The notes under the pieces were generated by a model. The model was not told where the DNA came from. It saw only the letters and a program-made list of their open reading frames with translations, and made no database searches. A stretch of DNA of 64,000 nucleotides from Eukaryota sp. GEM-RC1 (Eukaryota): assembly GCA_040285855.1 (NCBI GenBank), contig JAUFOQ010000016.1, positions 1,736,001 through 1,800,000 of the forward strand, in the 5' to 3' direction. Of the stretch, positions 9,919 to 52,452 are shown one piece after another (within the stretch, counting starts at the first letter, position 1; the number at the start of each line of letters is the position of its first letter). The position numbers were made by a program, and so were the translations under genes.

Positions 9919-9997
9919 ATCTGATCTATGAGATTTCAAGAGTGATTCATTCCAAGTCTACCACAGTCTGATTCTATTTTCGTCTCTTGATACTAAT

Positions 9998-12315
9998 ATG
10001 TTTCAACACTTCTGTGGTCGCTCACGAGTAGATAGTACTTGCACCAACTCTATAGGTCTTGCACTTGATGTTGATTATGCAGGGAGAGATCGTGTTGACA
10101 GTCTTGGGGTAAGTTCTCCTGTTTTTACACAGCAGCTTCATCGCGATGCTCCCTCAACATTGTCGCAATACACAAAGGTTGCGAAAGTTGGTAGCGGGGC
10201 CTCTGGTGAAGTTTGGCTTTGTCTTAATGCTGAGAAACAGGAAGTTGCCATGAAGATCATCCCACTTAAGCGTACTCATGGTCCTGATTTGTTATCCAAC
10301 GAAACATTACGAGAAATTGCCATTCTCCGCAAACTTGACTATCCCAACATTTTACGCTTGCAAGATTACGTTGTGGACCCTGATGCTCGAAAGATCTACA
10401 TCGTCACTGAGTTCTGTGATATGGGTCCATTGATCAAAGACAGTGACATTGGTTCTTATAAGCCTCTATCTCCTGCCAAATCACGCAAAATCTTTGGTCA
10501 AATAGTTGCTGGACTGCACTATATACATTCAAATGGTATCGCTCATAACGATATTAAACCGTCTAATATTCTCCTAAGTCGCTCTAAAGATGCCTCGCTG
10601 CGGGTTGTTATAGCTGATTTTGGTATCTCATCTCGTCTGGGCAGATCGGTTTCTTACTTTCAAGGCTCTCCGCTGTTCCTTGCTCCTGAGTGTTTAACAC
10701 AAGAACCTGGAGGTGATGACTTTTCTGACGGCACTGCTGCTGATATCTATGCCTTGGGTGTTTGCCTCTATGTGCTCTGCTTCGGTCGTTCTCCGTGGGG
10801 AGACGTTATCACACGTGATGGACTTGAACAAGCTGTTTCCAGATTATGTAGCTGGAAAACGAATTCTAGAAGTTCCTGCTGGTGGAGATGAAGCTCTTGA
10901 ACATCTCATCCGCTCCATGTTACACCCTAATCCCACTAAAAGAGCAACAATCAAAGAAATCCTTGCTGATCCTTGGCTTATGGCTAATACTGATTTGCCT
11001 ACCTACATCAATGCTGACAATAACCGCGCTCTTTCAATTTCCCTAAGTAGAACGGACATTGACAACGCTGTAACTGTTGTTTCAAACATCGACTTCGAAA
11101 CAAGAGTTGGAAGTGACACGTGGTCTGCTACTCATTTGTCTGAAGCTCAACGTAACCTACTTGTTTTCCATTCTGCCATTAATCTATTGAATCTTTGTAC
11201 TAGGTTGATGGATCTTGCTGGAGCTCACTGTTCACCCAATAGATCCCGCATTACTGAACAACTTCTGTCCTGGACCTCGTCGTGTTGTGATGAATCCGTA
11301 GACCCCGCTGACGTATGCTTTACCAGTCTTCAATATGGACTGACTTTTATTGAGTGGTCCAAGGCTCTTGAAGAGGACGTTGTATCGTCAATTGATGACG
11401 TTACTGAAACAAAGAGATATGAATTCAAGATGAAGCAACTTGACTATGTTAAGAATAAGGTACTGCCTATCTTAAAACAACGTATTCAAGAACTTGTATT
11501 TAGATTGAAGGCATCAGAGGTCAATCCTAATCATAACATTGATTGTGTGGGGCCGTGGAGGTATTTCAAAGCAAAGAATATCTGTAATAATTTTAAAGCA
11601 GTTTTTGATGCTATTTCACATAATCCTGATTCATCATCCAGAATTCATTTCATTTGTAATGCACAATGCGTTCTTAAGCCACCGTGTACTTCGCTTCCTG
11701 TCCACACCATTCACCTGGATGTTGGTATATCTGATGTAGGATTTTCTGATCACTTTTGCTCCTCGTCTGGTGATGAAATGGTCCTACCAAAGACTCATAC
11801 TTCTGACAAGGAATTGATTAATCCTGTCTATCTTCCCGCTGTTGCTGTTGACATCCTTCGTGATTTAATTTGTAACTCTCGAAAGTATAGTCCTCCTGGT
11901 ACTGTGATTAGAGCTGCTGTCTGGAATCAGATGAATAAGGGTCGGAATTACCTTCACATGGGTGTAAATGATGCTGGAATTGGCATGGAGGATCCTGAAG
12001 CTCTAGTTCAATTTGGAGCCACGGGAAATCAAGAACGTAGAGGTTTTGGAAGAGGATTTGGTCTTACAAAGTGTTTTGTCACTGTTACGTCGTTTTTGAA
12101 TGGTACTTTCTCAGTGACCTCACTTCGAGATCGTGGTACTTGCATTCAAATAGCTATCCCTGTACCAGAAGAAGCAAAGGTCAATATTGACACTCGCCCT
12201 CCTTGGATTTTTTGCAGGTTCTCAACTTAACGTCGAAGAAGTAAGTCAGTTTGATGATATTGATAGTGACGTTTCATTTGACAGTGACTATAGTGATGTA
12301 GAAATGTTTGACTAG
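9998..12315 (+). CDS. Ser/Thr protein kinase fused to a histidine-kinase-type HATPase_c domain, copy 1
   Basis: Kinase motifs GSGASG, VAMK, HNDIKPSN, DFG and APE. C-terminal N box (RDLICNSRKY), G1 (NDAGIGM), G2 (GRGFGLT) and GTCI. Frameshift near 10840; an acidic tail runs to 12315 in the +1 frame. Confidence 0.88.
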
Positions 12316-13231
12316 GTTTGTTACATTATGTCTAGTAGTTTTGGACTTACTCTGTTTTCTATGAATTACACTGTTTGTTGGGTAGAGATATTGTTTGTTT
12401 TTGATTTATAATGAACTTTGTCCTTACTTATCTCCATGACAGATCTCTCTGTTGTAGTGTACATTTTGACTGCAAAATTTTTGAGTCATCACCAAACACA
12501 CGTCAACTATCTCTCATTCACATAAAATCAAAAATCCACTGTATCTATAAACTCGACACCCACCGAAGAAGTTTTAAAAGGGTCATTCGGATGTGACAAT
12601 TTGTTGATGAAACTCTGTAAATACTAGTATTGTAGCATGTGTAGTCATCCAATTAACAACTTCCAACTTTCGATATCAGGTGGTAGTAGAGCAAGAAAAG
12701 GATAACATACTAGCACATACAGAAAAAAGCCAAATATAATTATCCTTAGGTCAGGTCCTTCTTAAAAGAGAAGAGAAGAGCCTAGAGAGTTTTAAACAGC
12801 ATAATCCCAGCAAAAAGGACACTCCAGCATATTTACTACATTTACTGAATTTGGCAAGTCTCCTAAAAGAGAAACAAATTCCAAATTTGTGTTTCAACCT
12901 TTTGCCAAAAATTTGCCAATATCTATTACCAAACTTATCTGCCAAATTTCGAGTTGATTGTTTAGCTCTATTGTTTCACCGTTTGTACTTTACCGCTTTG
13001 TTTTCTCAAATGTGTACTTCAGTGACAGTTGCTTTTTCAATATTGATTTCTAGCTGTTGTTTTGGTCTATTGTGCCTGTCGAGTATTGACTGACGTAAAT
13101 TCTGTCCTTCCCTTCATACTTACTTCACTTGTCAATGATACTTTCTACATTTTACAACAATCATTCAAGTATTACAGTTTCAATATTTGTTAGTCTGCTT
13201 TGTACTGTAGTATTGTATTAAAAATAATTAT

Positions 13232-16010
13232 TTGATTTGCGGAGATTGTCTCTCTGTTGATACTCTTCGTCCTCCTGTGAAAATTTCGAATCAACTCAGC
13301 CCCAAAGGTTCCATTCCTTTTTCTATTGCTTTTCGGTCTTTTACTCTAGCGCTTTCACTAGGTTCTTGGGATGTTCTTCACATCTGGAAGTTTTTTCTTG
13401 AGAAACAATCTCAATCCTGCACTCACCCTAAGAAAGTGTTTGCTCCAAAGAAATTACCAAAGGAAAATATTGTACGTCAACAACTTCTTCGAGGTAGGTA
13501 TGGTTCAGCTAAGAATGCCATATTTTCATCAGATCTCGCTCCTGTTTCTGATGACACTGTTTCTCAACTTCAGGCTCTTCATACATTGGAAAAATTTTCT
13601 CCTGTCAAGCCTATGCCTTCTTTGTATTGGAAAGAAAACCCCATTAGAGTGGATGAGTTGATTAGTTGTATTTTAAAACTCCCTTCAGAAAAAGCTCTTG
13701 GACCTTCAGGTATTACTTTTGATATGCTCAAATCTGTTTCACGTCAAAATTCACTTATTGTTGAAGATTTATGTCTCTTTTTCAACAATGTTTTGTTATC
13801 GAAGGTTGTTCCTCCTAAAGAGTTGTCTGCTTCTGGTTTGGTTGCACTGATTAAGCCTAACAAGAAAATCCGTCCTATTGCTGTCGGTGAAGCTACTTAC
13901 CGTCTGTTTGCTTCTGTTGTTTTTGGAAGAATTTCCAACAAAGCCAAGGATTTCTTTTCACCTTACCAATATGGTATTAAAACCATTGATGGAGCTTCTG
14001 TGGCTGCCCTTTCTTCTGATGTTTTCTTCAACGCGGTTGAAATTAATTGCATTTTGAATTTGGATTTTAAGAATGCTTTTAATTCTGTTAAACGATCTGC
14101 CATTTGTTCTGAATTGGAAAAGAGTTTTCCCGAATTAGGTACCTGTTTTCATTGTTTTTATGGTCACTCTTCTGACTTGGTTTTTAATTCATTTGTTCTT
14201 AATTCTGTTTCTGGTGTTAAACAAGGAGATCCTCTTGGTCCCTTCTTTTTTTGTTTGGCTATTCATCCAATCTTGAAAAACTCAAAGAAGAACATGCAGA
14301 CTTAGAAATTGTAGCTTATATGGATGACATTTCTTTTATTGCTCATATGTCAACTCTTCGTATTATTGCGAATCAGGCTGCTGATTTGTACGATGCAATT
14401 GGACTTCAATTAAATGTGCAAAAATGTTTTTGATTGCCAAAGTACCTGTAACTTTAATTGTTAATTCTTTAGAGGTTCCCTTTGTGAACTACTTATCTTC
14501 AAGCTTTAGATTTCTAGGTTGCTATCTTGGTTCACATGACAACATTGTTAAAGATCTGAATGTATATTTGGATTCAATGCGAAAAGAATTAGATCAAATT
14601 AAGGAATTGCAATTGGAAAAACATTTCAAATTCTTTATGCTAAAAATTTGTTATTCAGGAAAAGTTACTCATCTGCTTCGCTCTTTGCCCCCTGTACTTA
14701 CCTATAACTTCTGTAGAAGCTTTAACAAAATTTGAACTGACTTTCTAGCATTTTTGTTATCAGTGGATCCTGATGCTTTGAACAATCACATCTTCTCAGA
14801 TCCTCATCTAGGTGGTATTGGTTTTACTTCGTCTAAATGGTGGACCAAATCTGCTTCCATTAGTGGTGGTAAGAATTTTGTCTTTGAGTTCTGTAGACAG
14901 TACCCAAGTCAAGAAAATCTTCTTGTTTCGACAAGTAGTTTTTTATTTGTAAATTTGAGATCAGAATTGTCGCTAATTTCACCTGACCTCTGGCAAACTT
15001 GTTTTCCAGCAGATATTTGTGAAATACCAGAACGATGTGTCACCTCGTTAAAATTTGCTCTTAAGAAACTCCAAAAACACCTTTTAAAACATTTTGAATG
15101 TTTGGATTTTAAAATTCGTCTTGGCTCGGCCAAAGAAAAAATCCAGCTTTCGCAAATTTTTAAATCGATTTGAAGGACAGTTCTTCAGTTGCTTTGATTA
15201 ACCAAATTCCTCAGATTTATGGTTTGTTGTTGAATGATCATCAATGGACTACAACATTTAGACTTCGATGTTTCTTGTGGCCCTCTAATTTACCCAATGA
15301 TCTTCAATGCAAATGTGGTAAATTAGTTATTTTTTCTCACCTTTTGAGTTGTAATCGTTTCATTTCTTATAGAACTTGTATTCATGATGCTGTCAGAGAT
15401 CAAATTCATGCAATGTGTAAGTCCTACAAAATAGAATCTTTCGTTGAGCCACTGTTGAGATCACTGGAAATCAATAATTCAAAAAATAGTGATTCTGATA
15501 AGACTTTTGGTAAACGAAGAGCTGATGTTATAGTTCCATCAGTTAATGATGAACTAACCGTTGTTGATGTGATTACTGTGGATGTTTGCAAAAAAAGTGC
15601 ATTCAAGGATGCTAAAAATGAAGTTTCTCCACTGAATTCTTCAGAACAATACAAGAGAAACAAATATGATGAACCATTGACTGCTCTCCAACATATTAGA
15701 CATGTTGAGTACAAATTATGTCCTTTTGCAATTTCAATTTATGGTCGACTTGGTAGAGATGCTCTTTGTTTTCTCTCTGATTTTGAGACAGTGGTCCAAA
15801 AAATGAACCAGAAATGTACCAAAAATTTTGGTTGAATCGTTTTGTTTTTACAATATTTAAAACAATTCCTGTCATGATTTCAAAAGCTCTATTCGCTCTC
15901 AGTGTTTTTTATGAAGAAAAAGCTGATGTGAGTTTTAATGGCAATGATTGTTGCTTTAATGATATTGAGTTCTAGTTTTTGTATTTCACTTACTGTTTAT
16001 GTTCCATAAA
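13232..16010 (+). mobile_element. Non-LTR retrotransposon with RT and C-terminal restriction-like endonuclease (CRE/R2-like, family A), disrupted
   Basis: RT motifs GPSG, RPIAVGE, LDFKNAFNS, GVKQGDPLGP, YMDD (14317-14328) and FLG. CCHC (CKCGK..HLLSC), HDAVRD and RADV..VVDV..KRNKY follow. There are several frameshifts and an in-frame TGA, and the 5' boundary is not determined. Confidence 0.92.
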
Positions 16011-16659
16011 GAAAAAATACTTTAAGTATTGCAATATTGGTTAAACAATTTTAATATTGATTTTGTGGCTGAAATGCTATGATATTTACAGTGTTGTGTT
16101 GTGATCCTACTTCAGAATAGGCTAGTATAGAATCAAAATACTTAGACATTGCTCTAAAAAGGGGAACTGACATCCTTGCTCTTCAATAAAATTCGTCCCA
16201 AACTGTTTACACAATTTTCCCAATAATTTTATACAAACATTAGTAAAAGTCTGAATGTGGTTTCTTGATATGTATATTTCATGTTGCACATAAGGAGAAT
16301 AAATTTGAAAGAAAATTGGAGACTGGTTTGTAGTTCGAGTATCTGGTAAAAAGTGGGACCAAAAAGAAAGTATTTGGTGACTCTGAGAACCTAAACCATC
16401 TCTGATCAACTGAAGGAGAAGGTGTTGTATGGGAAAGTGTGCTCTAATGTGAAACGGGTTTCGCCAGCTGTTCGAAGATTGCAAAGATTGAGAAGGCTTA
16501 TCAAAAAGACAAATGTAGTGGCTTGGCACCACGATCATTGGACAACAATCAGCGAATAGGAAAAGTACAAGAGTTGATAACAGTATATAAACTGGGATAA
16601 TCATCCAAACTGGGAAACAACCCTAGAGATCAAAAGTAATTCATTCAAGTCTGCCGTCG

Positions 16660-19007
16660 ATTCTATTTTCGTCTCTTGATAGTAACAAGCTCCCACACTT
16701 CTGTGGCCGCTCTCGTTTCGATGGTACTTACACCAACTCTCAAAGTCTTCAAATTGATGTTGGTTATGTCGGGAAAGATCGTGTTGACAGTCTTGGGGTA
16801 AATTCTCCTCATTTAACTCGTCAGCTTCATCGTGATACTCCCTCAACATTGTCTCAGTACACCAAAGTTGCGAAAGTTGGTAGCGGTGCCTCTGGTGAAG
16901 TTTGGCTTTGTCTTAATTCTGAGAAACAGGAAGTTGCTATGAAGATCATCCCACTTAAGCGTCATCATGGTTGTGATCTGTTATCTAGCCAAACTCTGCG
17001 CGAAATTGCCATACTCCGCAAACTTGACTATCCCAATATTTTGCACTTGCAAGATTACGTGGTCGATCCGGATGCTCGGAAGATCTACATCGTCACTGAG
17101 TTCTGTGATATGGGTCCATTGATCAAAGACAGTGACATTGGTTCTTATAAGCCTCTCCCTCCAGCCAAAGCACGCAAAATCTTTGGTCAAATAGTTGCCG
17201 GGCTGCACTATATACATTCAAAAGGTATCGCTCATAACGATATTAAACCATCTAATATCCTCCTCAGTCGCTCTAAAGATGCCTCGCTGCGGGTTGTTAT
17301 AGCTGATTTTGGTATCTTGTCTCGTCTGGGAGGATCCGATTCTACTTTCAAGGCTCTCCGCTGTTCCTTGCTCCTGAGTGTTTAACACAAGATCCTGGAG
17401 AAGATGACTTCTCTGACGGTACTGCTGCTGATATCTGTGCCTTGGGTGTTTGCCTCTATGTGCTCTGTTTCGGTCGTTCTCCGTGGGGAGACGTTATCAC
17501 ACGTGATGGACTTAAACACACTCTTTCGGAATATGTTGATGGACAACGAATTCTAGAAGTTCCTGCTGGTGGAGATGAAGCTCTTGAACATCTGATCCGT
17601 TCCATGTTACACCCTGATCCTTATAAAAGAGCTACAATCAAGGAAATCCTAGTTGATCCTTGGCTTTTGGCTGATACTGATTTGCCTGCATATTTCAATG
17701 TTGACGACAACCACGCTCTTTCAATTTCCCTAAGTAGAACGGACATTGACAACGCTGTAACTGTTGTCTCAAACATTGACTTCGAAACAAGAGTTGGAAG
17801 TGACACGTGGTCTGCTCATTTGTCTGAAGCTCAACGTAACCTGCTTGTTTTTCATTCTGCTATTAATCTATTGAACCTTTGTACTAAGTTGATGGATCTT
17901 GCTGGAGCTCACTGTTCACCCAATAGATCCCGCATTACTGAACAACTTCTGTCCTGGACCTCGTCGTGTTGTGAAATGGACGAAGAATCAGCAGATTCCA
18001 ATGATGTGTGCTTTACCAGTCTTCAATTTGGACTGACTTTTATTGAATGGTCCAAGGCTCTTGAAGAGGACGTTGTATCGTCAATTGATGACGTTACTCG
18101 ATCAAAGATATATGAATTCAAGATGAAGCAACTTGACTATGTTAAGAATAAGGTACTGCCCATCTTAAAACAACGTATTCAGGAACTTGTACTTAGATTG
18201 AAGGCATCAGAGATCAATCCTAATCATAACATTGATTGTGTGGGACCGTGGAGGTATTTTAAAGCAAACAATATCTGTAATAATTTTAAAGCAGTTTTTG
18301 ATGCTATTTCTCATAATCCTGATTCATCTTCCAGAATTACATTCATTTGTAATGGGCAATGCGTTCTAAAGCCACCGTGTACTTCGCTTCCTGTCCACAC
18401 CATTCACCTGGATGTTGGTATATCTGATGTAGGATTTTCTGATCACTTTTGCTCCTCGTCTGGTGATGAAATGGTCCTACCAAAGACTCATAGTTCTGAC
18501 AAGGAATTGATTAATCCTGTCTATCTTCCCGCTGTTGCTGTTGACATCCTTCGTGATTTAATTTGTAACTCTAGAAAGTATAGTCCTCCTGGTACTGTGA
18601 TTAGAGCTGCTGTCTGGAATCAGATGAATAAGGGTAGGAATTACCTTCACATGGGGGTCAATCTGCTGGAATTGGCATGGACGATCCTGAAGCTCTAGTT
18701 CAATTTGGAGCTACTGGAAATCAAGAACGTAGAGGTTTTGGAAGAGGATTTGGTCTTACAAAGTGTTATGTCACTGTTACTTCGTTTTTAAATGGTACTT
18801 TCTCAGTGACGTCACTTCCAGATCGTGGTACCTGCATTCAAATAGCTATCCCTGTACCAGAAGAAGCAAAGGTCAATATTGACACTCGCCCTCCTTGGAT
18901 TTTTTGCTGCCTCTCAATTTCATGTTGAAGAAGTATGTCAGTTTGATGATATTGATAGTGACGTTTCATTTGACAGTGACTATAGTGATGTGGAAATGTT
19001 GGATTAG
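16660..19007 (+). pseudogene. Ser/Thr kinase-HATPase fusion, copy 2 (pseudogene or error-broken gene)
   Basis: Near-identical to 9998-12315. The ATG matching 9998 is AAG here, and there are frameshifts near 17340 and 18660. Confidence 0.8.
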
Positions 19008-19272
19008 ATTTTGGATTTATGTATAGTAGTTTTTGAAATACGGTACTCTGTTTTGAACGAGTTTTACTGTTTATTGTGTAAAGATATCGTTTGTTTTTGA
19101 TTAATTGAACGTTTCTAGAATCATTTAACAGGCTAGGTTCTATAGAAATGGACATCACACAGCAGGTTATACTGTTCAGATGCAAGTTACAGACCTGTTC
19201 ATGTTGACAAAGTACCGACCAATGCTTAAAAAAAAGTGGTAGAAATTTTCTCGATCAGACACATTTGACAAA

Positions 19273-33644: not shown

Positions 33645-35596
33645 TCATGTTTTGGCTTTCTTCTTCTTAGTAGTAGCTGGTTTCCGTGTCTTCCTAACAA
33701 CTTTTTCCTTCGGTTTAACTTCCTTCTCCTCGTCATCACTTCCACCTGCTATTGAGTCAAACATTACACCTTTAGCCTTCAAAGTCCTTGTCAACTTTGC
33801 CTTGACCTTAGGTTCAACAGATGGTAGAGACATTCCAGGGAAAACATACTCGTTATTGAAGAATCCCCAGTCATCACGGTCAATCTGATATTTTTCCATT
33901 AATTCAACGACTGAATCGAGACCAGCTGAAACGTCATCTGATTGCACACTGATTGGTAAAGTGAGTTTTCGTAATAAATACGGTAGGTAATCTAGAGAGA
34001 ATGATGTTGATCCAGCTAACGTCACAGGATACGATCGCAAAGATAAATATTTAAATATTCGTTTGAATTTGCTAGTTTTGGAGTATTTGCCCAAAAACTG
34101 TGGAAAATCTGTTCTTTTTAAATCGCCACTGACTTTAACACCGGGATAAATACATGAAGTAATTGCTTTACAAGGCATCAAATGCCACGATTGATCTTCC
34201 ATAATTGACCGTCCAATTATATCTGATTCAGAAAACGATTGAGCTGCAACTGCCAAATTCTGCAATCGTTGATTGACGGGGACATTAAATGGAGCTTCAC
34301 TAAACAGATAATTCTCTTGAACCATTAACGGAACAAGATCGTCAACAAAATAATCATTCATACGGTCATAAATCCACGGTTTCTGTTTACCAATCATAAG
34401 TGATGAAGGTGGTGGTTTAAACATTGCAGGAACAACGGACCATGCGTTCTTTGATAGTTGTTTTAAATCTAACTTTTCAGCCACGTCAAGAAAGGAAACT
34501 GACCGTGATAATCCCAGAGCGAGTGATTGGAGTGCAGTGATGCTATATCTGACATCTGACTGTGACATTTCAATCAATTTTCGTAATGCATCGTCATCAA
34601 TTGCCACGTTTTCATTTTGAGCTATAGCACGTAACCGTGGTAGAACTTGATCAACAGTTGGAGGTCGGAACACCAAAGCCAACGAATAATTCTTTAAAGT
34701 TTTAAATTTTGGATCTCCAACATCATTACCAATACAAATAACAGGATGTTTACTTTTCTTAGCTAACTGAATCAACTGGGCTAACCCCCTCTATCCCCCG
34801 TACTCATTCCATCTACTTCATCCATAATAAGAACAGTTCTGTTAGTTCCCTGGCTTAACATTGACTCAACAGAGAATGAGGTCAAAAAGTCACGTGTTAG
34901 GTCATTAAGAAGTGTTTTTGAGCGTGTGTCTGAAGCATTGAGTTCCAGTTTCTTATAACCAAGTTCAGCTGCGATTAAGGAAGCTGCAGATGTTTTACCA
35001 ACACCTGGAGGGCCTGACAACAAGGCAATGTTATGAGGTCGGTCCTTGGAAGAGTAGAAGTTGTTAAGGAAAGTTCGAAGTGCTTTAATTGAAGTAGGAT
35101 TTCCAACGAGATCATTAGAAGTAGAAGGTCTGTACTTATCAGGCCAAACTGAGGAGTTAGAGCTTGGGTTGAGCTTAGGGACAAGTTTGGGTTGTGATAG
35201 GCTTGGCAGAGGTTGGGATAGGCTTGGCAGAGGTTGGCTACGAGGTAGTTTGAGTTTTGGCTTTTGGAGAACAGGAATTCTGAGAAGTGGTTGAGAGGTA
35301 GAGGTAAGAGTTGGTCTTTGATCTGAACGGGATCGTTCCTTTACCATGTCAAAAAGTTGTTGGAGGGTGATGGTTTTTGTGTGATTTTGGAACTTTTTCA
35401 AGAGATTTTGTAAAGGGGGAGAGATGTTTGAGCCCACTATGGCGAAGTCTGTGCGTTCTGAAGGTGTGATTTTGATTTGGGCTGAGTATTGTTCACAGTA
35501 TTGTTTTATTTCTGTGCTTGTGAAGGGGGAAAAATCACCCAGGACACACATAGAAGTGTTACGAAGACATCCAGGTGTACCTTGAGGGGGTTGCAT
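33645..35596 (-). CDS. RFC1: Replication factor C subunit 1 (frameshift near 34780)
   Basis: BRCT-like N-terminus, WPDKYRP, Walker A GPPGVGKT, ELNASDTRS, MDEVDGMSTGDRGG and the RFC1 C-terminal domain. Confidence 0.95.
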
Positions 35597-36095
35597 TGTT
35601 TCTCAACTAAGCTAAAAACACTTGTGTTGAATTCATTTGGGGTGCATACTCCCCAAAATCATTCTACATGTAGTTTTACCCCAAATACTCTTCACCCCAT
35701 AACCACATATCCCCAATCTGATACACTTATACCTTCTTTGATGGATTCCATACATCTTTTGATATCAAGTGTTGAGCTTCTTTCAAGATAGAGACGTGTT
35801 TGCAGGTATTCGTTCTTAGAATTGTGAACCGTGTTCAACCATGTCATGAATAAACTCAACGTTGTACAACAATCCTACAACACATACATCACATTGACAT
35901 CTTATCCTCCAAAGGAAAACACTAAGGTTTGCTACAACTCTGATCGTGTAATACACTGCTGTGTCTTCAGTCATTTTTGACTGCATTTTTCAATTCTATC
36001 AGATGCTATCTGGAATGAGACTAAGGTCAACGACATCAAGTCCATGAAGCTTCATTCATCAGAAGACACAAAGACACCAAGTTATAACTACATGT

Positions 36096-36740
36096 ACAAC
36101 ATTTGTAATGACAACATTTGGTGATACAACATTTGTAACTACAACATTTGAAACTACAACATTTGTAATGACAACATTTGGTGATACAACATTTGGTGAT
36201 ACAACATTTGGTGATACAACATTTGTAACTACAACATTTGTAACTACAACATTTGTAATGACAACATTTGGTGATACAACATTTGTAACTACAACATTTG
36301 AAACTACAACATTTGTAACTACAACATTTGTAACTACAACATTTGTAATGACAACATTTGTAATGACAACATTTGGTGATACAACATTTGTAACTACAAC
36401 ATTTGAAACTACAACATTTGTAACTACAACATTTGTAATGACAACATTTGTAATGACAACATTTGGTGATACAACATTTGTAACTACAACATTTGTAATG
36501 ACAACATTTGGTGATACAACATTTGTAACTACAACATTTGTAACTACAACATTTGTAATGACAACATTTGTAATGACAACATTTGGTGATACAACATTTG
36601 TAACTACAACATTTGAAACTACAACATTTGTAACTACAACATTTGTAACTACAACATTTGTAACTACAACATTTGTAATGACAACATTTGGTGATACAAC
36701 ATTTGGTGATACAACATTTGTAACTACAACATTTGGTGAG
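36096..36740. repeat. 15-bp minisatellite, 43 units
   Basis: Invariant ACAACATTTG followed by TAATG, GTGAT, TAACT or AAACT (last unit GTGAG). Confidence 0.97.
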
Positions 36741-36858
36741 AATCAATCTCAATCAACGTGTCCTATGTGTATTGAATTCTTATTGCTCATAATTTTGTCT
36801 TCTATATATAATGTCGTTAAACACAACCAATAAAATATACAACCTCAGTTTATCAAAC

Positions 36859-37970
36859 TTAACTAACACTACTATATCCCCCCATCACCCTCGCAAACAT
36901 CACAGCCAACGAAAACGACTCCTTATATCCAATCCCACAACAATACTCACACATCACTTCACGAAATTCATCCAATATTCCCAAACAATGTTCATCACAC
37001 ATCACTTCATCATTTAAATCTAATATCGACACAACAAAAGTATTGGTCAACGACAACACATTAAAGTACTTGTCCCTATCATTCAAATGAAAACTCAAAA
37101 TTTTGGCCATTATTAAATTTAAATCTTTTAACAACTGAAGTTTCAATTTCATATGTGGAAGACAATTTGATGTTGTATCATTTTGGTTCCAGTGCAGTGG
37201 TACAATATTGTGGACAATTGTGAGAACCTTTGTTTCTGTCTGCATGGAAATAGTACGAGTATTGTTCAAGTTGTTTTCAAAGTCTGTCTGAAGACCAAGT
37301 GAATTTGTTATTCTGTTGATAGATTCAGTGTCCTCATGATCTGTAACTTTTCTTGATAATTTCAAACTAGGTAAATTCGAATTTGGTTTGAGAGTATTTC
37401 GAGACAATAGATTTGGTCTCAATTTAGGCAAAGTAGTAAATCAATACGACGTTTTGGTGAAGGAAAAACGACTTGAGATGGAGTATCGTTAATGCGAGTA
37501 TTGTCACAAGCATGTAAAAGAGTAGGAGACTGAGGCTGAGGAGGAGGAGGGGAACGAGCAATTGTAACTCGTTTAACGTCTTTGAGTAGATCCTTAAGAT
37601 GATTTAGAGTTGAAGTTGTTGATTGAAGTGGAAGAGATATGTCACGCTTCTCATAAGAACCATCAAAAGGAAAGAGATGAACAGTTTCTAGATCAACATC
37701 TAGCACAATGGCAACGGCTGCTTTGTAGTTGAGGCAAAAATCCATGGTACCCTTTTTAAGATCATCTGGTAAGTCAGATGTTGACACTTCCGTTATGTGG
37801 ATGGATTTAGTTCTCCATGAATTGTATGTTCCATAAGGAAGAAGAACAAGTGACAAATTAACTGCATGCTTATCAGCAAGCTTTACAACAAGTTTCATAT
37901 ATGTTTTGATGGTACGGGAACGACTTTCTTGTTCAGAAGTATTTCTGAGTTTGAAAATTGAGTAGGACAT
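36859..37970 (-). CDS. Orphan ORF(s) inside the Fanzor element (183 aa + 190 aa, possibly one frameshifted gene)
   Basis: Overlapping ORFs 37419-37970 and 36859-37431, divergent from the Fanzor ORF. No motif recognised. Confidence 0.5.
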
Positions 37971-38117
37971 GGGAAATTCTGGTATAGACTTTATTACAGA
38001 TTTCGTTTTTTAACACGTGAATTCCCACACACATGTCCATTACAGTCTGTGTGGGATTTCATTTTCCTTCCTCCTACAGTATAAATGTCGTTTGTTCTGC
38101 ATCCAAACAGACGTTGT

Positions 38118-38492
38118 CCGCCATTCTGTCCTTATCTGACTCAACTTGTGACTGTTTCCATTGCACGGTTTCGGGCTCAGTTGAGTTTAGATAAGGACAG
38201 TTCTTTCCCTCCACTGCCTCCGCTTCTGTTGCTTCTCCCTCTACTGCCGTTGCTTTCCCCACTTCTGTTGCTTCGATAATGCCGCCATTCTGTCCTTATC
38301 TGACTCAACTTGTGACTGTTTCCATTGCACGGTTTCGGGCTCAGTTGAGTTTAGATAAGGACAGTTCTTTCCCTCCACTGCCTCCGCTTCTGTTGCTTCG
38401 ATAATGCCGCCATTCTGTCCTTATCTGACTCAACTTGTGACTGACTCCATTGCACGGTTTCGGGCTCAGTTGAGTTTAGAAAAGGACAGTTC
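38118..38492. repeat. Three tandem copies of a unit containing a 75-nt hairpin
   Basis: Hairpins at 38126-38200, 38290-38364 and 38415-38489. CTGTCCTTATCTGACTCAACT pairs with AGTTGAGTTTAGATAAGGACAG. Confidence 0.9.
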
Positions 38493-38526
38493 ATTCTGTG
38501 TTTTATCAACACATACATTTATTGCC

Positions 38527-41500
38527 ATGAAGTACTCGTCTCCCCTGTTTATCCCTTCCCATCCTCCGTTCCCAAAAGACCTCACCGCTGATGGTGATAT
38601 TGAATCCAATCCAGGACCCGTAACTCAAGAAGCCATAAACTCAGTTTATCCTAATCAATGGGTTGATGACGAAGCGATAGTGGAGTACTGTAAAGTGATA
38701 TTTCAAGAAGCAGGGTTAGACTTTGAAAGCATGTTTATCCATCCGACCACATGGCTTCAATACATTGTTTCACCAGATGTCCCGCTAGATCAATGGTTGT
38801 TGACGAAAATTGAGAAAAATCAAATCACAAACTCCAAGTATCTCTTTGTTCCCCTTAGTGATACCATGACTAGAAATACTAATTATTCCAGAGAAGGTGT
38901 CACTGGTTCTCATTGGGGTTTAGCCATTATAGACTGTTGTGAAAAGGAATGGATCTTCATTGATCCAATGTTAACTACCGTCGATATGACTAAGTCTATG
39001 GTAAAATCAGCTGTAGACATATTATCCGAAGTACTTGTGCCATGGGGGTATGTTTTCCGTTATGTACCTGTGACTAAAAGTCAGTCTGCTAACGACTGTG
39101 GAGTTTATGTCATTGCGTATATTCAAAAATATGTTGAACTTTTTAAAAGACTCATGTATGTTCCGTCTCTGATGTATTTGGAAACTTATTTGGTCCAAGT
39201 GAACAATGAACTTCAAGCAGACATATTTCGTGAAAAAATTCGGGATGTATTGTCTCAACAAAGGACACTTTATCTACAACAACGTCAAACCACAGTAGCT
39301 CCTATTGTACCATCGTTACCCATTCAACCTCCTGCCGGTAAAGAACATCCAACCACTTCAATTCCTCTCACAGGTTCACGTCTTGCTAGTACTAAAACAT
39401 CTACTGGTTTAAGCACTAAAAAAAGGAAAGCCAAAATTTCAGATGTTCCATCACCACGAGGTTCACCTTTAATTCAACGAAATAAATTTAGAACTACCAG
39501 CTCCCTTGTTTCAACTGGTGACACTCCAATACGAAAGACCCACCGCCGTATGTCCACATTGGAATCATCGGAATTACCACAATCTGAACTATCATCACCA
39601 TCTGAACTATCATCACCATCTGAACTACCACCATCTGAACTACCACCAAAATCACAGGCCTCCATTATGTCGTATCCATCGCCAATTCAAGAAGAAATCC
39701 AAAAAATGAAAGTAAATCTACACACTGAGCCTATAGAAGAAGAAATTCAAATTCAAGACTTTCTTAAATCCCCTTTACTTTGGAACAATCTGCCAACTTT
39801 TTGTTTAATTCATGTTCAAAGTGATTTTGCCAGTTCAGAAAGAATTAATGGCAAAAATGTTCAACTTGTTCAAGATGATGATGACATTGAAACTGTTGAA
39901 GGTGAAGCTGAAGATCAATTAGAAGTTAAACGTGATTCTTCTGTTGATCCGATTGTATCAATTTCCATCCAGATCATTGATCACAATGAATTTAATGAAA
40001 AGCATTTATTTTCTCATGGTAATTTTGATACTACAAACTTGGATTTGTGTACTTTACATATTTCAGATAGTGAATCCAGTATGCTTAAAAACTTCATTTC
40101 CTTCATTACTCAACATTGTCCGCGATTGTTTGTGAGTTATGACTTTCACTTAGATACATTTCCCTTTCTTGTATCACGTTGTCAAGTCCTCAAAATCAAT
40201 ACAACGTTTACTTTTCCAGAATTTAAACCCTATATTCCCTTTTGGTTCAACAAATGGTGTAAGGAAACAACTTTTGGTCCGTTTTTTAGTCTCGATTTGA
40301 ATGCTGTATTGAAGAATTTTTATGTCTTTACTGGTGGCCGTTTTTTGGAAAATGTTGTTCAAATTTTTCTTGAAATGAATAATTTTTCTAAAAATGAAAC
40401 TGTCAAACGCTTGGAAGAACTTGATCATGACTCTGATCCTGATGAAGTTCAATTGGTCAATGATGTCCAAAACTTGCATGGCATAATTGACAGTATTAAT
40501 GTTTTAGTTCCAGACAATCCCAAAGTGAAGGTCGATAAGATTAAAAAGAAATTTGTAAAAAATTTGGAGAAAGTAAATGAACTTTGGGCCAAGGAATCGA
40601 CAAGACCGCTATTGTTGATGAACTCAATTCAACAATTACCTCTGATTGAATACTTATTGGCTGACCTATTGGATCCCAAAAAACAAACATTACGTTCAAA
40701 GTCACCAATGAAAGTGGTTAAGAAACGACTAGACAATGTTGTATCCAAAGCGAAGGTTAAATTTATTGAATCTCGTGTTAAGAGAGCTCACCAAGTAAGA
40801 GTCCGTAGTACTCTCTTTTTGAAACATTTTTTTGTTCATAATTTTCACCATTCTGGTATTTTAGGTTACATTCAGAAGTTACTGCCTGCTGCTGTTCCAA
40901 ATGTAACTGTTAAGGAAGAAATGAATTCTGATACAGATGAGTCAACTGACGAAGAAACAGATGTACATTCAGAGTCTATCGATGCTACTGCTCCTCCCGT
41001 TAAATTAGAAAATATTGAAGATGCGAGTGGTGAACCTGAACCTGACCTTTGGACTAGAATTCAAACTACCAAAATTGAATTGCCAGACTGGAAGAATTTT
41101 TTTACGTTGAAATCAATGGAACAAGTGTTATCTATGATGACGATTAGGGACTACAAACTTGTAAACAATCAGAATCATATTAGGACTGTACAAGAATCGT
41201 TAACAAACATAATTTCTAAACCAAATGATGGCTCAACTCAAAATCAGTTTGCTCAACATTTCTTGATGCATTACATTCCTCGTTTAGAACTAGCTGCTCG
41301 ATCTGTTGGACTTGATAGGATTGTGTTTCCCAGTAGCCTCAATTTATCTCCTATATTGCATTACATGGCTACAGAAATTATTACAAATTACAAGACTAAC
41401 ATGAGTGAACACTTTCACGAATATGTTTTTCAAGTATTTAATTTGGTTACCCTGAAAAAAGATAGACTTAACAAGCTTACTGATAAGAATCAACGACAAG

Positions 41501-43589
41501 AGTTGTGTACAAAGCTTAATGAAGTCAGACAGTTGATCATTAATGGGGAAATTTCAAAAATTAATTTTCAAGATGTTGAAGTGTTTCCTGATCCCAATTC
41601 TAGACTGAGTTTACTATTTTTTAACTATTTGTTTACTTTTTTTGAAGGTAAAATGGAAAAAACAATTCATTATGCTGAAAAAGTAGATCCTTTGAAATTC
41701 TTAAGTCATGCAGTGTATTTGAAACGTCTTGTTGAGGACTCTTGTACTGGAGTTACTGCCAACAATCCTTTTCCTCTGACAAAATCATTGATTCCTAATC
41801 ATATCAGATTGGATACTACATGGTTTAAAAAAGTTTATGCATCAGAAATTAAAGGTAGCTTTGATGACGTTCGAAAAGATATTTGGCACTCAGTTTTGAA
41901 ACCAAAGTTTCTTCCAAAGTCATTGTCTCATGACTTCAAATACAGTTCTATTTCTACAGATGGAGTTAGCTGTAGTTTAATGATGATGCGGAAAGATCTG
42001 CTTGATGGGAGAGGAAATCCTCATAAGAAGGTGAAAGCTGTTGACTACACAGCTACTGAAAGGTACATTGATTCTTTGAGTTCCACAGAAATTCAAAACT
42101 TAAATTTGAAATCAAAAGGAATTGTTGCTATTGATCCTAATCAGCATGATTTGATGTATTGTGCTTCTTTAAAATCTAAGGAGGAAAAGAAAATCGAAGG
42201 TTTCGATACATCAGCCAATCTCAGAAGAAGAAAGATTTGTCCAAAATCGTCAAAGAAAAAAGGAAGCTTGAAAAAATTAAAAAAGGAATTGAAGGATTGG
42301 AAAGACGCACCTACTATTGACAAACCATCAACTGTCAAGTTGAAAAATCGAGACAATTGGAAAGTATTCAGATACACTGCTGGGGAACGCAATGCCGATA
42401 TTAAAAAAGTCTCCATGGAAAAGAAAAAAACAAGTAAGGAAAGAAAAAAGAGCTAAGAGGAAGAAGAGGAAGCTGGAGAAGAAAATAAGACGATACAATC
42501 TCCACCGTTTATCTGAATCCGAACGGTTACAACAATATTCTACTCAATTTATTCACATTCCAGATGGCAGACGCATTGACATAAATGGGCAACAAATTTT
42601 AGATCAATGGGGCTCTAACTCGCCAGGTAGTAAATCTTGTGAATTGACTCAGTATTCTGCTTTTGTTCTTGGTAAAGAAATTGCCTGCTCTTTACTACGA
42701 TCACCCACTACTGATCAAAAAACTACTGAAGGAATTTACGAAGAAAAGTGGTTTAGACGGAATCGTCTCACACAGTATTCAAGAAAGGAACGAAGTGAGA
42801 AAAACATGCTTCACAGATTTACTCTCCAGTTTGGAAACCCAGATGAAGTCGTTGTTGGGTATGGAGACTGGAACGACACTGCTTTTCGTCGAAGAAGAGG
42901 TAAAGCATCTACTGTAAAAGGTGCTTCAATTCGGAAATTATTGAGAAAATTTGGATTTAAAGTGTTCCTAGTTGATGAATTTAAGACCAGCAAATGTTGC
43001 TCTGCATGTGTTTCCAGAAACGACGAAGGTATCTGTTCCAATCCTGAAAGGATAAAAGTCACTGATCCTCATTGGAAGAAGAAGTTACAGAAGGAAGAGA
43101 AAGAATTAAAAAAGGAAATTATGGAACACAATCAATTAGACAATATTGTGGAGCGTAACTTTGATGATGAATGGACCAAACAGTTGACATTATCGAAAGA
43201 AAGATTGAAGAGCAAAAAAGTCTCACCATGGGGCTTAGTTGAATGTGCCAAATGTCATGTCCTCTGGAATAGAGACTTCAATTCTGCTATCAATATTTAC
43301 AATATTGTAAATGGAACCATTCAAGGTCAAGGTAGACCTGCCATCCTCGAGAGACCAAAATCTCAAACAACACCTGTCGTGGATGGCGGGAATACAGATC
43401 AGATTCCAAAAGAAAAAGACTGTGAGTAAGGGTAAGGGTAAAGCAAAGCGTCCTCTAACAAAAGTCAGAGGTCCTAACAAGTGTGGTATATGTTTTCAAC
43501 CTGGACATAACAGAGCAACTTGTCCAAATAAGCCTAAGAAAGATGTACCCAAGGACTCACATGTAAACCAGAAAGATCAGGAATCTTGA
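38527..43589 (+). CDS. Multidomain Fanzor: 2A peptide, Ulp1/C48 protease, PolB exonuclease-like, Fanzor RuvC nuclease, CCHC knuckle (two +1 shifts in A-runs near 42420 and 43410)
   Basis: DLTADGDIESNPGP; SHWGLAIID..IDP..QSANDCGVYV; STDGVSCSL; VAIDPN (D 42133); VGYGDW; LVDEFKTSKCCSAC (E 42977); CAKCHVLWNRDFNSAINI (D 43274); CGICFQPGHNRATC. Confidence 0.88.
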
Positions 43590-43708
43590 ATCTATGAAGT
43601 TAGCTCGTCTTAAAAGACTTTGCGAATGAGGACATTTATTTGTTCAAACTGTGGGTTTTGCTCTATGAGATCATGAAAATGTGAAGGGTTATTCCCTTAT
43701 GCATTTGG
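43590..43708 (+). ncRNA. Candidate Fanzor omegaRNA scaffold (3' part)
   Basis: Non-coding segment between the Fanzor stop and the inferred right end, ending in a 12-bp hairpin (43677-43706). The 5' extent is unknown. Confidence 0.45.
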
Positions 43709-43771
43709 AATGAAATTCACAGTTGTGTTTCAGAACCACATTTTGGAAAATAAAGCACAAATTCCACAACA

Positions 43772-44526
43772 ATGGCACAAAATAACCCAGCCCCCTCCCA
43801 ACCTGCTCCTGTCCCTACACAACCTGCTCCTGTTCAGCAACAAGCTCAAGTCATTCATATGCCTGCTCAGTACACCATCCCTCAGATGGGGTATCACCCC
43901 GGTTTAGCTGCTCCTCCAAAGAAGGGAGCTGTTAAACAAATCGTGGTTGTAGTCGCCGTTATTTGTATGTTTGTAGCTTTCTACTCTAACCACAGTAGTT
44001 CTTGCGGTTGTGATCGGAATCAACGCCTTCGATCTGGGCCTCGATATTCAATATCCCTACACAGTCTCAGTCTCTGGAGGTGCTGCAAGTTTTGGTATCA
44101 AAGGAGGAACGTATGGAGTTGATAAAGCCAACCACAAGTTTTACGGTGAGCTTGATGTCCCCTTCATTTCACTCTCAGGGGAACTGTTCTGCCTCAATGA
44201 CAAGATAAGGGCCAAAATTCTTGGACAATGCACTCCACAATTTCTTTCAGTTTCCTACGAATGTGATAAGTTGATAGACTTCGTTGGTTTGTTATGTTTT
44301 GCCTACTTATCATAGTTCCTGAGATCCCTTCGAGTGCCAAAAGACTGGTGAAAAGAAGAAAGTAGATTCTTTCTATGGTTTCCCAAGAAAGTGCTCGGTA
44401 TATGAAGATGGTAACAATACTTGGTGTGCCATCAACAACCGTATTTACGAACGGTGTGTTGGCCCTGCGTGTTTTACCTTTGAAAAGCACTCATTTGCAT
44501 CTGCAAGCGATTTTGAATGTTCGTGA
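43772..44526 (+). CDS. Type II membrane protein with Pro/Gln-rich N-terminus and a 31-nt intron (43965-43995)
   Basis: Splicing GTATGT...CTAACCACAG joins ORF 43772 to ORF 44010 through a TM helix. A further frame break lies near 44310. Confidence 0.75.
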
Positions 44527-44629
44527 GATTAATGACTCGAAGACTTAGACCGAAATATAGAAAAAGAAAATAATAGAATTTATAAAAAATAAACAATCCG
44601 CAACTAAAACAAAAAAAAGAAAAAAATCC

Positions 44630-47600
44630 TTATACTTCCGGCTCATCTTCAAGAGTCTGAAGTTCAAAAGCAACCAGATACAAGGGGTTTTCATAAGGAG
44701 AAAGTCTCTTTGGGATGGTATTTCCAAACATTTTCTTAAAAAAATCTTTTTTCCGATGGAATATAATCTCTACTACAATCAATCCAAAGGACAAAGTAGA
44801 AGAAATACCCGCAACTGACCCAAGAACCCCTCCAACCTTTGATACCAACGTATCTTTATACCTTTTCTCAGTAACTAAAGCAAACTGGGATTCATCCAAT
44901 TCAACAACAATTGAAAGACCAGATGAATAAGAGAAGTCCTGATTAGCCACCAACTGTCCTTCCTTTTTAGAATCTAGTCTTATATGATATCCAAAAGAAG
45001 TAACTCCATTAGATTGATCATGGAACTGAGACTTGGTTGCTTCAAAGGCAAACACATTAGGTTTGGTTCCTCTTAGGATCATGTCTGTAGGTGCAATGAT
45101 TCGTTCTGAGACAAAAGAGTTGTTCCAGGGGGAGAGAAGAGGAGGATGAGATGTTGAGCTCGATTGAATGAGCAAAAATGCTAGAATCAATGGTAGTAAA
45201 AACGACTCTACTCATAGATGAAGAAGCTAAACACTCCGAAAGGACTAGTTCAAACAAACAGCCATCACTAAAATCTAATGGAAAGATCAAATCAAAATCT
45301 AAACACTCGAAATTTTCAAAATTTACTGAGAAATCACCATCCTGGCAGCTTCTCTGAGGGCCAGTTGCTAGTACAGTCACGTTTCCTGTGAAGTAAACAT
45401 CAGATTGGAGGAGGAAGGAAGGTTCCGTTGACCGGTAGTAGGCAAAGTTATCCATTTGGTATTCAACAAAAGGATAGCAGAAAAGGCTAGCGCAAAGATG
45501 ATGAACCAGAAGGAGAAGAGACCTCCAAGACGAGTTTTCCTCTTGGTGATGACTTGGTCGTTTTCAGTGAAATGTTGACGTGAGAAGAGATCAATAAACA
45601 CTAATTTTGAGCTATTGGCTCCCATAAACGCAACCAATATTAGCACGAGCACAGCCAAGATATACGAAATTACTAGTATACTATTAGAAACAGCTGCAAC
45701 TCTATCTGTATTAGGTTCAGGAAGTCTAGGTTGACTTGAAATAGAATGCCCACCAACAGATGTATTAGTTGGTCTCGGGTACAGCGATCCTACTGGGCAG
45801 TACTCATCCTCACTACAAGGGAAACAAGAAGAAGATCCAGCATAAGGTTGATAGGTTTGCGCTGGGCAAGGTAGACAAGACTCAGATCCAATGACTGCGA
45901 TAGTATCTGAGAAGAAGCCAGGTGGACAAGGAACACAGATGGATTGGGAACCAGATGATGTACCATAGAGTCCTTCTCTACATGGAGAGCAAATCTCTGG
46001 TGACGTGGTATTCTGTTGACTTCCTAAGAAACAATCAAGTTTGCAATCAAACCCACGTGATGTGAAGTCGTCACACGTGATTGATCTTAAAAAGAGTGAC
46101 GACAATCCAAAATTGGAAACCGCGGTCAAACTTCGTACTGAAGATCCACCAAATATAAACACTTGATCCCCATAACCAACAGCTGAAAACTCTAAAATAG
46201 GGTCAAAATAATCATGTAAAAATTCAAAAAGTGAAGTCCAGTGGTTTCAGTAGTCGTCAGTTCTGGAACATAAAGAAAGCTCACAGATCCCATGTAAGAA
46301 CCCCATACCGATCCTCCAATGTATAGCAAAGTATCTCCAATTAAGAGGGAAGTGTAGCTATCTACTTGAGAAAGAGCATCATCTAGAACAAGACTCTGGG
46401 AATACCAATAAGCCTCGTTATCATTTAAAATAGAAGAAGTACTGACCTTGAACAAAGTATTCTGCATGGCAGTAAACGTGCCCAATCGACCACCAGTCAA
46501 AAATCAAGTAGGGATCATCTGATTTTGTAACGATAACTAATTGACAACTATCAAGACCTGGGGGCCGGAATCCTGTAGATTCAACTTTCTTCCAAATTCC
46601 CAGTCGAAGATTCAATACATACAACCTATTGGATAAAGAAGAAGAGGTTCGGCCACCATAAACAAACACGTGATGTTGATACCTGGTAGAACATGCCCCT
46701 GACATGGGTGTTGGAACATCTCCAGTGACCTCAAGAATTGACCATTGAGTAGCAGAAGTGTCATAAACAAAGACCGATGACGTCAACTCTCCTGAAGTAG
46801 ATGAACTTCCAAAAGAGAGAAGATGCGGCGTCCAAAAGAGACAACTGAGTGACCAGTGTAGTAGTCAGGAGCAAAAGAAGAAACTACTTCATCACTAGAC
46901 CAAATAAAAGTAGACAAATCCAAGTACCAAACCAATGTCTGAGTACCACTGAGTTGTGACCTTACTCCTCCGATGAGAAACATCCTGTTACCAACAGTGA
47001 CAGCCTTGTGTTGAGTAAGAGCAACAGGAGAAGGGAAGTGGTGGGAGCTGATGTGGAAGTGGGGATCGGATAAGTCCTTGAGATGGAGGAGGAGGAGAGA
47101 GTTCTCAACTCTATTAGAGTAGTAACCACCAAAAACAAACAGACGATCAATGAATAAACTACAAGTACCAGAGTCAAATGCAAAGTCTTCATGGTTATCA
47201 CCTCTAACTAAGGGAAACGACTTCCATTGCCACGTGGCAACATCAGGAGAATTGTGTGTGGATAGAACTTGCACTACATCAGAAGGACGTTGCAGGACAC
47301 GTAACCACCCGCCTAAGATAACCAAGTCACCATCCGGAGTTAAAGTAGAAGGAGCAAGGTAAGTAGCAATGGGTGACCCTGAGATTAAGTTAGAGACGTC
47401 AGTTAAGTTAGCACTAAAGGAATCGCCATCTTTAGTTAGTTCAACTAACCAAGTATCATTCATATCCCTTCCTGATACCCCTGCGTTGGTTCTACCTGAG
47501 TAGAGAACGAAAGTGTGGGTGAGAAAGGGAAGTACAGCGGTGAAGGGGGCTTGTCTTCCTGAGAAAATAGAACCAGGTGTAAGAACCTTGTACCAATCTA

Positions 47601-52319: not shown

Positions 52320-52452
52320 AATAGTAACATGTTTGAAACAAATAAACTGTGAGTACAATTTTTACATTCGATTTTCTACTAGATATTATTAGGGAACCAG
52401 AATCTCAAATAATGTCCCCATAAATGTGACTACGTGAGATAGTTTCACCTCT

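Follow-up and report, generated by a model that had tools for sequence, protein, structure and literature searches.

A 64,000-nucleotide stretch of the Eukaryota sp. GEM-RC1 genome (contig JAUFOQ010000016.1, positions 1,736,001 to 1,800,000; hereafter the window) carries at 38527-43589, on the plus strand, a gene that, judged from its sequence, is a real Fanzor1 with intact RuvC residues, joined to a 2A-like motif, a C48 cysteine protease, an exonuclease fold and a CCHC zinc knuckle. The architecture, the intact RuvC and protease residues and the many copies were observed directly, and at the family level the fusion is almost certainly real. Such an enzymatically loaded Fanzor1 is apparently undescribed and is conserved across a deep clade. 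As for function, we somewhat favour the view that this gene, one of many dispersed copies, serves a mobile element by encoding an RNA-guided homing nuclease, and that the protease joined to it would take off NEDD8- or SUMO-type tags and thereby help the element to be copied.

The coding region consists of three open reading frames (ORFs), ORF1 at 38527-42456 (1,309 aa), ORF2 at 42344-43429 and ORF3 at 43311-43589, every next frame being shifted by +1. A preliminary description of this DNA had joined them through +1 shifts in A-runs into about 1,690 aa; the frames were confirmed, and the joined length is arithmetically 1,686 aa. ORF1 encodes, in order, DIESNPGP, the C48 protease, a linker predicted to be disordered, an exonuclease domain of the family-B polymerase kind and the front half of the Fanzor up to RuvC-I, whereas GDW, VDEFKTS, a split C4 finger and NRD are found in ORF2 and the CCHC knuckle in ORF3. 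Because the 2A, the protease, the exonuclease fold and RuvC-I all lie within one unbroken frame, their fusion requires no frame repair. A motif scan located all the nuclease signatures that had been named, with the D-E-D triad intact: TDGVS at 41956, RuvC-I IDPNQ at 42130, YGDW at 42860, VDEFKTS at 42971, the finger halves CCSAC at 42995 and CAKC at 43244, and NRD at 43268. The 2A motif lies at 38596 and the knuckle at 43482. The Pfam profiles Peptidase_C48 (E 1.6e-5) and DNA_pol_B_exo1 (E 3e-7) matched past their curated cut-offs, Cas12f1-like_TNB matched the window protein at E 7.7e-9, and zf-CCHC_2 gave a sub-cut-off match (E 0.0014).

Within the nuclease, sequence searches and motifs delimit WED/REC and RuvC-I at 40708-42443 (D1203 at 42133, N1205), and, together with Pfam, the bridge region, GDW, the RuvC-II Glu, the zinc finger and the RuvC-III Asp at 42450-43407. 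A basic tail with the knuckle (43482-43523) and the stop codon follows at 43412-43589, as judged by Pfam and sister alignment; the number of knuckles varies, with two in the P0051 subfamily and none in the relative P0115.

The earlier assignment as Fanzor1-like was borne out. A sequence search of the PDB matched SpuFz1 with ORF1 (E 2.5e-12) and ORF2 (E 3.7e-7), followed by PpFz1 (2.8e-5) and GtFz1 (3.2e-4), and Fz1 proteins were the only Fanzor or TnpB structures matched. Fanzor1 is recognized by a RuvC D-E-D triad with its Glu six amino acids upstream of a zinc finger (PMC13565253), and the window gene shows this arrangement, with D1203, the Glu at 42977 six residues ahead of the Cys at 42995, and the Asp at 43274. 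The motif order of Bao and Jurka, D...[TS][TS]xx-C4 finger...RD, is likewise present; the D-to-TS spacing is 283 in the sister copy P0060 and 281 in P0115, a few residues beyond the published 125-275, and PpFz1 has a RuvC insertion too. The RuvC residues were invariant in 45 of the 45 fetched proteins in which the motifs could be located. An AlphaFold model of P0115 residues 255-1445 (84 sequences; pLDDT, for predicted local distance difference test, 74.6; predicted template modelling score, pTM, 0.69) aligned with SpuFz1 residues 18-633 over 558 residues (Z 25.9, 3.3 Å), and with PpFz1, GtFz1, ApmFz2 and TnpB at Z 25.6, 21.5, 11.0 and 10.4, respectively, showing for this relative the Fz1-type fold with its enlarged REC domain. 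The first 300 residues of the same model match the exonucleases of polymerases delta and epsilon (Z 12-12.7), ending about 12 residues before WED. Profile and structure searches alike (Pfam TNB, Fz1 entries in the PDB, the P0115 model) returned Fanzor matches, which answers the doubt that they might not.

Two breaks interrupt the frame of this copy, both inside the intervals predicted for them (42410-42450 and 43400-43420): A-runs at 42444-42449 and 43408-43411, each with one surplus A relative to the aligned sister copies. The comparison draws on 96 homologous proteins, 95 of them labelled Eukaryota sp. GEM-RC1, on 12 contigs; the sister counts omit P0066, a fragment of the window gene itself, and the largest homologue cluster is represented by 15 of its 26 members. 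Chimeras with other 5' modules aside, window-type sisters are about 85-100% identical across shared parts. All six sisters that span the first break read through it (P0052, P0060, P0061, P0067, P0068 and P0069), and none of 95 sister proteins ends there; the second is spanned in 13 of 13, always as KKKTVSKG. In P0060, P0067 and P0068 the whole D-E-D triad and the knuckle lie on a single frame. Since sister copies read through both breaks, the family protein is approximately 1,686 aa long, and since they are in frame, programmed frameshifting at the breaks was rejected. Introns were rejected as well: GT-AG pairs in a fitting phase enclose 19 nt at 42434 and 22 nt at 43422, but sister proteins retain those residues.

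Of 38 premature ends among sister proteins, 21 coincide with homopolymers of at least six bases, a class that makes up 8.7% of positions; the ends are not independent of each other (one T-run accounts for seven of the 21), and such breaks recur at the same homopolymers. Frame shifts also occur in other genes of the window: RFC1 is split by a G-run frameshift at 34781-34790 (minus strand) and serves as a host-like control for homopolymer errors, and an M1 aminopeptidase at about 51570 likewise shifts frame. From the sister alignments, both breaks in the window copy are probably assembly errors, and this copy is likely to be intact in the living genome. Against this stand the facts that slippage in living DNA carries the same homopolymer bias as assembly error, and that none of the 96 fetched proteins is a full-length window-type one, the longest reaching 1,098 aa. 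If the frameshifts were true, this copy would be dead and its N-terminal modules neutral captured sequence, which would agree with the pair of breaks in the nuclease part, with two more 1-nt departures from sister frames in the 5' monomers, with the lost exonuclease residues described below and with the fragmentary state of every window-type protein fetched. A dead copy with neutral cargo is nevertheless very unlikely given the 3.9-kb open frame, the retention of protease and nuclease catalytic residues across types just 20-45% identical, the persistence of a dead exonuclease fold in three subfamilies and the recurrence of breaks at the same homopolymers. The objection that genuine stops part RuvC-I from RuvC-II/III is disfavoured for the family, whose sister proteins are in frame throughout, and for the window copy assembly error remains the probable explanation.

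The protease occupies 38617-39261 and has a C48/CE-clan, NEDP1/SENP8-like fold according to Pfam, ESM features (0.96 for C48/SENP8) and AlphaFold/Foldseek. The His-Asp-Cys triad (H129, D146, C191), the oxyanion Gln (Q186) and the Trp lid (W45) are all there. In an AlphaFold model of window residues 27-800 (23 sequences, pLDDT 65, pTM 0.45) the domain was closest to NEDP1 (Foldseek E 9e-8; VIA Z 16.7, 3.2 Å, 190 residues). It is followed at 39307-39786 by a Ser/Pro/Thr-rich linker for which sequence and fold model predict disorder; within it lie a basic stretch, KKRKAK, and repeats of 18 nt.

Across 243 proteins, 42 contained a total of 51 protease domains, which formed 12 clusters. P0223 resembles cellular SENP8, and the remaining 11 clusters, of element type, are mutually 12-43% identical. 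The H-D-Q-C residues are retained in nine of these 11 (one of the 11 is a truncated fragment) and in 18 of 19 members of the window protease cluster. In a tandem subfamily, including P0021, P0023, P0040 and P0048, all 12 copies of the second protease domain carry Ser in place of the catalytic Cys and His in place of Gln, and this domain is possibly a decoy binding ubiquitin-like proteins. Protease and exonuclease were demonstrated to be linked in both the window type and the tandem type, and a shared linker suggests as much for P0111 and P0120; the other protease types showed linkage to 2A alone or none. P0012 and P0029 also span 2A, C48, exonuclease and the start of the Fanzor. Thus the domain list of the preliminary description (2A, C48, exonuclease fold, CCHC) stands, but the exonuclease is dead in this subfamily and the protease is not fixed across the clade.

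The exonuclease domain, at 39787-40689, has the proofreading fold of family-B polymerases by Pfam, motifs and fold, and its model matches polymerase exonucleases at Z 13-14.4; polymerase delta, polymerase epsilon and viral origins tie at Z 13.7-14.4. An active DEDDy enzyme combines Exo I DxE, an Exo II Asp and Exo III YxxxD, whereas the window has HVQ at Exo I and HLDTF, and Exo II lacks its Asp. The catalytic residues are replaced in the window type and in two other subfamilies (HVQ, EIE/EIK, DFK; Exo II Asp gone), all three of which retain the fold itself. P0115 has a complete set (D281, E283, D409, Y546, D550), and P0117 is intact for Exo I/II. P0115 is an unbroken protein of 1,473 aa comprising 2A, linker, exonuclease and a complete Fanzor1, with neither protease nor knuckle.

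To place these proteins, ORF1 residues 14-1210 were searched against 1.84 billion representatives, with 150 of the 188 matches listed. Custom hidden Markov models found the exonuclease in P0115 alone, and C48 in none, of 73 representative Fanzors of at least 550 aa. The phylogeny called for in the preliminary description was built with FastTree from eight clade rows (two of the rows less than half filled) and 56 other Fanzors, N-terminal parts trimmed, from a set that excluded the solved Fanzors and the other listed Fanzors. In it the eight exo-Fanzor proteins group together with support 100, the first split within the group (support 99) setting P0115 apart from the other seven. The simplest reading of these sequences is an ancestral fusion to an active exonuclease that was inactivated later, with the protease acquired afterwards; P0115 would then be the likely ancestral form, or it may have lost the protease secondarily. 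No related locus was confirmed in viral contigs (0/108 and 0/2 pattern matches) or metagenome contigs (0/130 and 0/38). P0185, an unrelated Fanzor1, carries an N-terminal extension of about 225 aa with no Pfam match.

SUMO and NEDD8 participate in transposon silencing, and CCHC knuckles bind RNA. In the mechanism that we propose, ribosomes would translate the 5' monomers into a leader that varies between copies and is then shed at the 2A, leaving protease, exonuclease fold and nuclease on a single chain of about 1,650 aa. As expected from the family, the core would bind an RNA from the 3' end of the element and cut the matching element-free site beside a short target-adjacent motif (TAM). Close to the break, the tethered protease might then strip off ubiquitin-like modifiers, so that repair proceeds more by homologous copying and less by end joining, or so that silencing is lifted. 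In the ancestor the exonuclease would have worked as an active enzyme trimming ends; today it may bind nucleic acid or act as a spacer. Mobility is probably provided in trans. A putative coupling of programmable cleavage to modifier removal was already put forward in the preliminary description, and the chances that the protease acts in cis on break repair seem to us roughly even. Fanzors are described as homing nucleases with RNA-guided cutting (PMC13565253), and human cells that lose neddylation, or in which it is inhibited, show more homologous recombination (PMC4333419); by the same effect, taking NEDD8 off close to a break would promote resection and homologous repair, the outcome that a homing element requires.

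Several observations weigh against this proposal. The neddylation effect on repair comes from human cells, and the protease assignment is not exclusive, since NopD (Z 16.3) ties with NEDP1 (16.7) and the SENPs and Ulp1 reach 14-15. As P0115 has no protease, the protease is dispensable for the clade. It hangs on a disordered linker of about 160 aa with no fixed contact apparent in the model of pTM 0.45. Finally, no transposase, guide, empty site or element ends were found, and homing is therefore assumed from the Fanzor family.

Some of the same evidence would suit a protease that is counter-silencing or anti-defence cargo acting away from the cut, perhaps self-released, with the fusion serving co-expression only. 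Eleven protease types at 12-43% identity, tandem copies and the recurring Cys-to-Ser second domain resemble a fast-changing cassette, the linker is long, NeSL and Utopia retrotransposons carry Ulp1-like proteases as cargo (PMC4640811), and polyprotein-processing viral CE-clan proteases are among the fold matches. Yet the sole 2A sits upstream of the protease, leaving none between it and the nuclease; a cleavage motif linked to the protease was not identified, and a conserved GG of the exonuclease also occurs in the protease-free P0115. We regard cargo of this kind as unlikely and retain a protease working with the nuclease as the preferred explanation.

The 2A-like StopGo motif lies in 38563-38619 and fits the D(V/I)ExNPG/P consensus, from which it is predicted to release the leader, with Pro31 as the new start; it occurs in 38 of 242 fetched proteins. 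Upstream, at 38118-38524, are three tandem monomers of about 118 nt, each with a hairpin of about 21 bp (38126-38200, 38290-38364 and 38415-38489), preceded by a further hairpin at 38017-38062 (strand not assigned); 0 of 300 shuffles folded equally well in each case. Sister gene models translate the monomers as a variable leader, in which at least five monomer types all end at the same 2A. The monomer type differs between copies, and monomer and protease types are freely mixed. As many leader types end at one 2A, its job would be to shed whatever leader was translated.

Further upstream, 36054-36089 (plus strand) matches the N-terminus of P0020 in 11 of 12 residues (tblastn E 0.07), which suggests that the element may begin about 2 kb farther out; the stretch could otherwise be an adjoining repeat. 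Directly after it, at 36095-36735, lies a 15-bp satellite of 43 copies, open in several frames. Between satellite and monomers, two overlapping minus-strand ORFs (36859-38009, together about 370 codons) run divergently from the Fanzor gene and are maybe a second element gene; they had no match in Pfam, NCBIfam, PHROG or PDB.

At the other end, the strongest predicted RNA hairpin of the gene starts where the Fanzor core ends and spans 43325-43398 (plus strand); it has the lowest z among 258 windows, none of 300 shuffles folded as well, and control windows went down to z -2.8. By its position it is a candidate start of the omegaRNA scaffold. The omegaRNA of GtFz1 overlaps its final codons, and that of SpuFz1 comes after the stop (PMC10432273). 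Because the shared knuckle tail lies downstream of the hairpin, the RNA would be long or begin later. Rfam gave only one sub-threshold match across 35500-45000, and a fixed-guide test within the window yielded five 12-mer matches, compared with 5-24 in seven control regions. If the tail is inside the element, the right end must fall within 43590-43771, the 3' flank (plus strand) up to the next host-like gene, in which a sequence scan saw no terminal repeat. A comparison of 35600-38120 with 43560-43790 gave no match above shuffles in either inverted or direct orientation, and no target duplication was found. Of the Helitron marks, strong 5' hairpins are present, but no CTRR in 43590-43771, no asymmetric terminal inverted repeat pair and no RepHel were seen. 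A proviral origin is unsupported, since the flanks are host-like genes.

In another reading the element is copied via RNA, as a non-autonomous unit resembling a long interspersed nuclear element, with a borrowed reverse transcriptase (RT), a Fanzor cut perhaps used as the priming site and a knuckle binding the element's own RNA. The swappable 5' monomers and the lack of terminal inverted repeats (TIRs) in the compared flanks are compatible with such a route, as are an N-terminal 2A, known from elements without long terminal repeats (non-LTR; PMC3708506), the Ulp1-like protease as in retrotransposons (PMC4640811), DEDDy exonuclease cargo in retroelements (PMC5408684), Mucor MCi-2 Fanzor elements with variable 5' regions and no TIRs (PMC3627910) and a non-LTR RT element in the same window. 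On the other hand, Pfam detected no RT in the gene, nor was one present in the matched parts of 242 fetched proteins, and 43590-43771 has no poly(A), A-run of five or more, or 3' microsatellite, so that the gene lacks the marks of an autonomous non-LTR element. Among the fetched copies, N- and C-terminal pieces occur in similar numbers (19 type-A protease domains versus 26 members of the C-terminal cluster), by which strong 5' truncation is not indicated, and a 2026 review finds no Fanzor-encoding retrotransposon. An RNA route is accordingly quite improbable, and the guided homing nuclease remains our working model. More speculatively, and with only a small chance of being right, the gene could represent a new type of selfish element that has no transposase or RT of its own and spreads by guided cutting with enzymes that rewrite repair (an ancestral end-trimming exonuclease, later a deNEDDylase cassette swapped in an arms race with the host), possibly the first retro-mobilised Fanzor.

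The window also contains other repeats. A second, distant and broken Fanzor relic lies at 1432-1887 (minus strand; hhalign 94% against the Fanzor alignment). A broken non-LTR retrotransposon at 13211-15832 (plus strand) has an RT by Pfam RVT_1 and a C-terminal part that presumably resembles a restriction-like endonuclease; partial copies lie near 52450, 58771, 62590, 8361 and 20417. It is flanked by a gene duplicated at 91% (9936-12419 and 16630-19113) with a protein kinase and a histidine-kinase-like ATPase domain.

Described Fanzors are compact single-enzyme nucleases, and their eukaryotic transposon role is still argued from bacterial homing. A lineage in which Fanzor1 apparently acquired an intact exonuclease before it took up exchangeable proteases suggests that what limits these elements is control of the repair pathway or silencing, a suggestion that single catalytic mutants can test; P0115 is an unbroken, ready candidate. 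The Fanzor N-terminus evidently tolerates large natural enzyme fusions, while an engineered T5 exonuclease fusion reduced SpuFz1 editing (PMC13434818). In agreement with the preliminary description, which knew no such architecture, we found no description of a natural Fanzor fused to a protease, an exonuclease or a 2A in the available text of the papers cited here and of PMC10530073, PMC6338049, PMC10711439, PMC10288648, PMC10691335 and bioRxiv 10.64898/2026.06.03.729735, a scope that ends short of Fanzor-survey supplements and Repbase.

The window protein shares with SpuFz1, PpFz1 and GtFz1 (PMC10432273, PMC11423790; PDB 8gkh, 9cez, 9cf1, 9cer) the WED/REC/RuvC/TNB fold, over nearly the whole SpuFz1 chain in the P0115 model, as well as the D-x-N RuvC-I, the Glu six residues before the zinc finger and NRD. 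Unlike most Fz1 proteins (600-700 aa), it measures some 1,690 aa through its N-terminal 2A, protease and exonuclease fold and its C-terminal CCHC, and no 30-nt inverted repeats were found. In this it resembles the unclassified Fanzor1 elements MCi-2, MCi-5 and CMe-1A (Bao and Jurka 2013, PMC3627910), which have no recognisable TIRs, 5'-variable subfamilies and no clear transposase of their own; there, however, the variable 5' DNA is described apart from the Fanzor frame, whereas here the variable module is an in-frame protease, with a fused exonuclease in addition. The protease has the fold and the W-H-D-Q-C residues of NEDP1/SENP8 and the C48/CE clan (PDB 2bkq, 2bkr; Ulp1, SENP7, NopD), but shows 18-24% identity and is embedded in a mobile-element polyprotein. 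Accessory modules of the same kinds occur in NeSL and Utopia (N-terminal Ulp1-like protease), in 2A-bearing L2, CR1, Crack, Rex1 and Ingi elements and in rotifer retroelements with DEDDy cargo; those elements, as described, encode an RT and are Fanzor-free, and the DEDDy cargo among them is RNase D-like, whereas the exonuclease of the window gene is family-B-polymerase-like.

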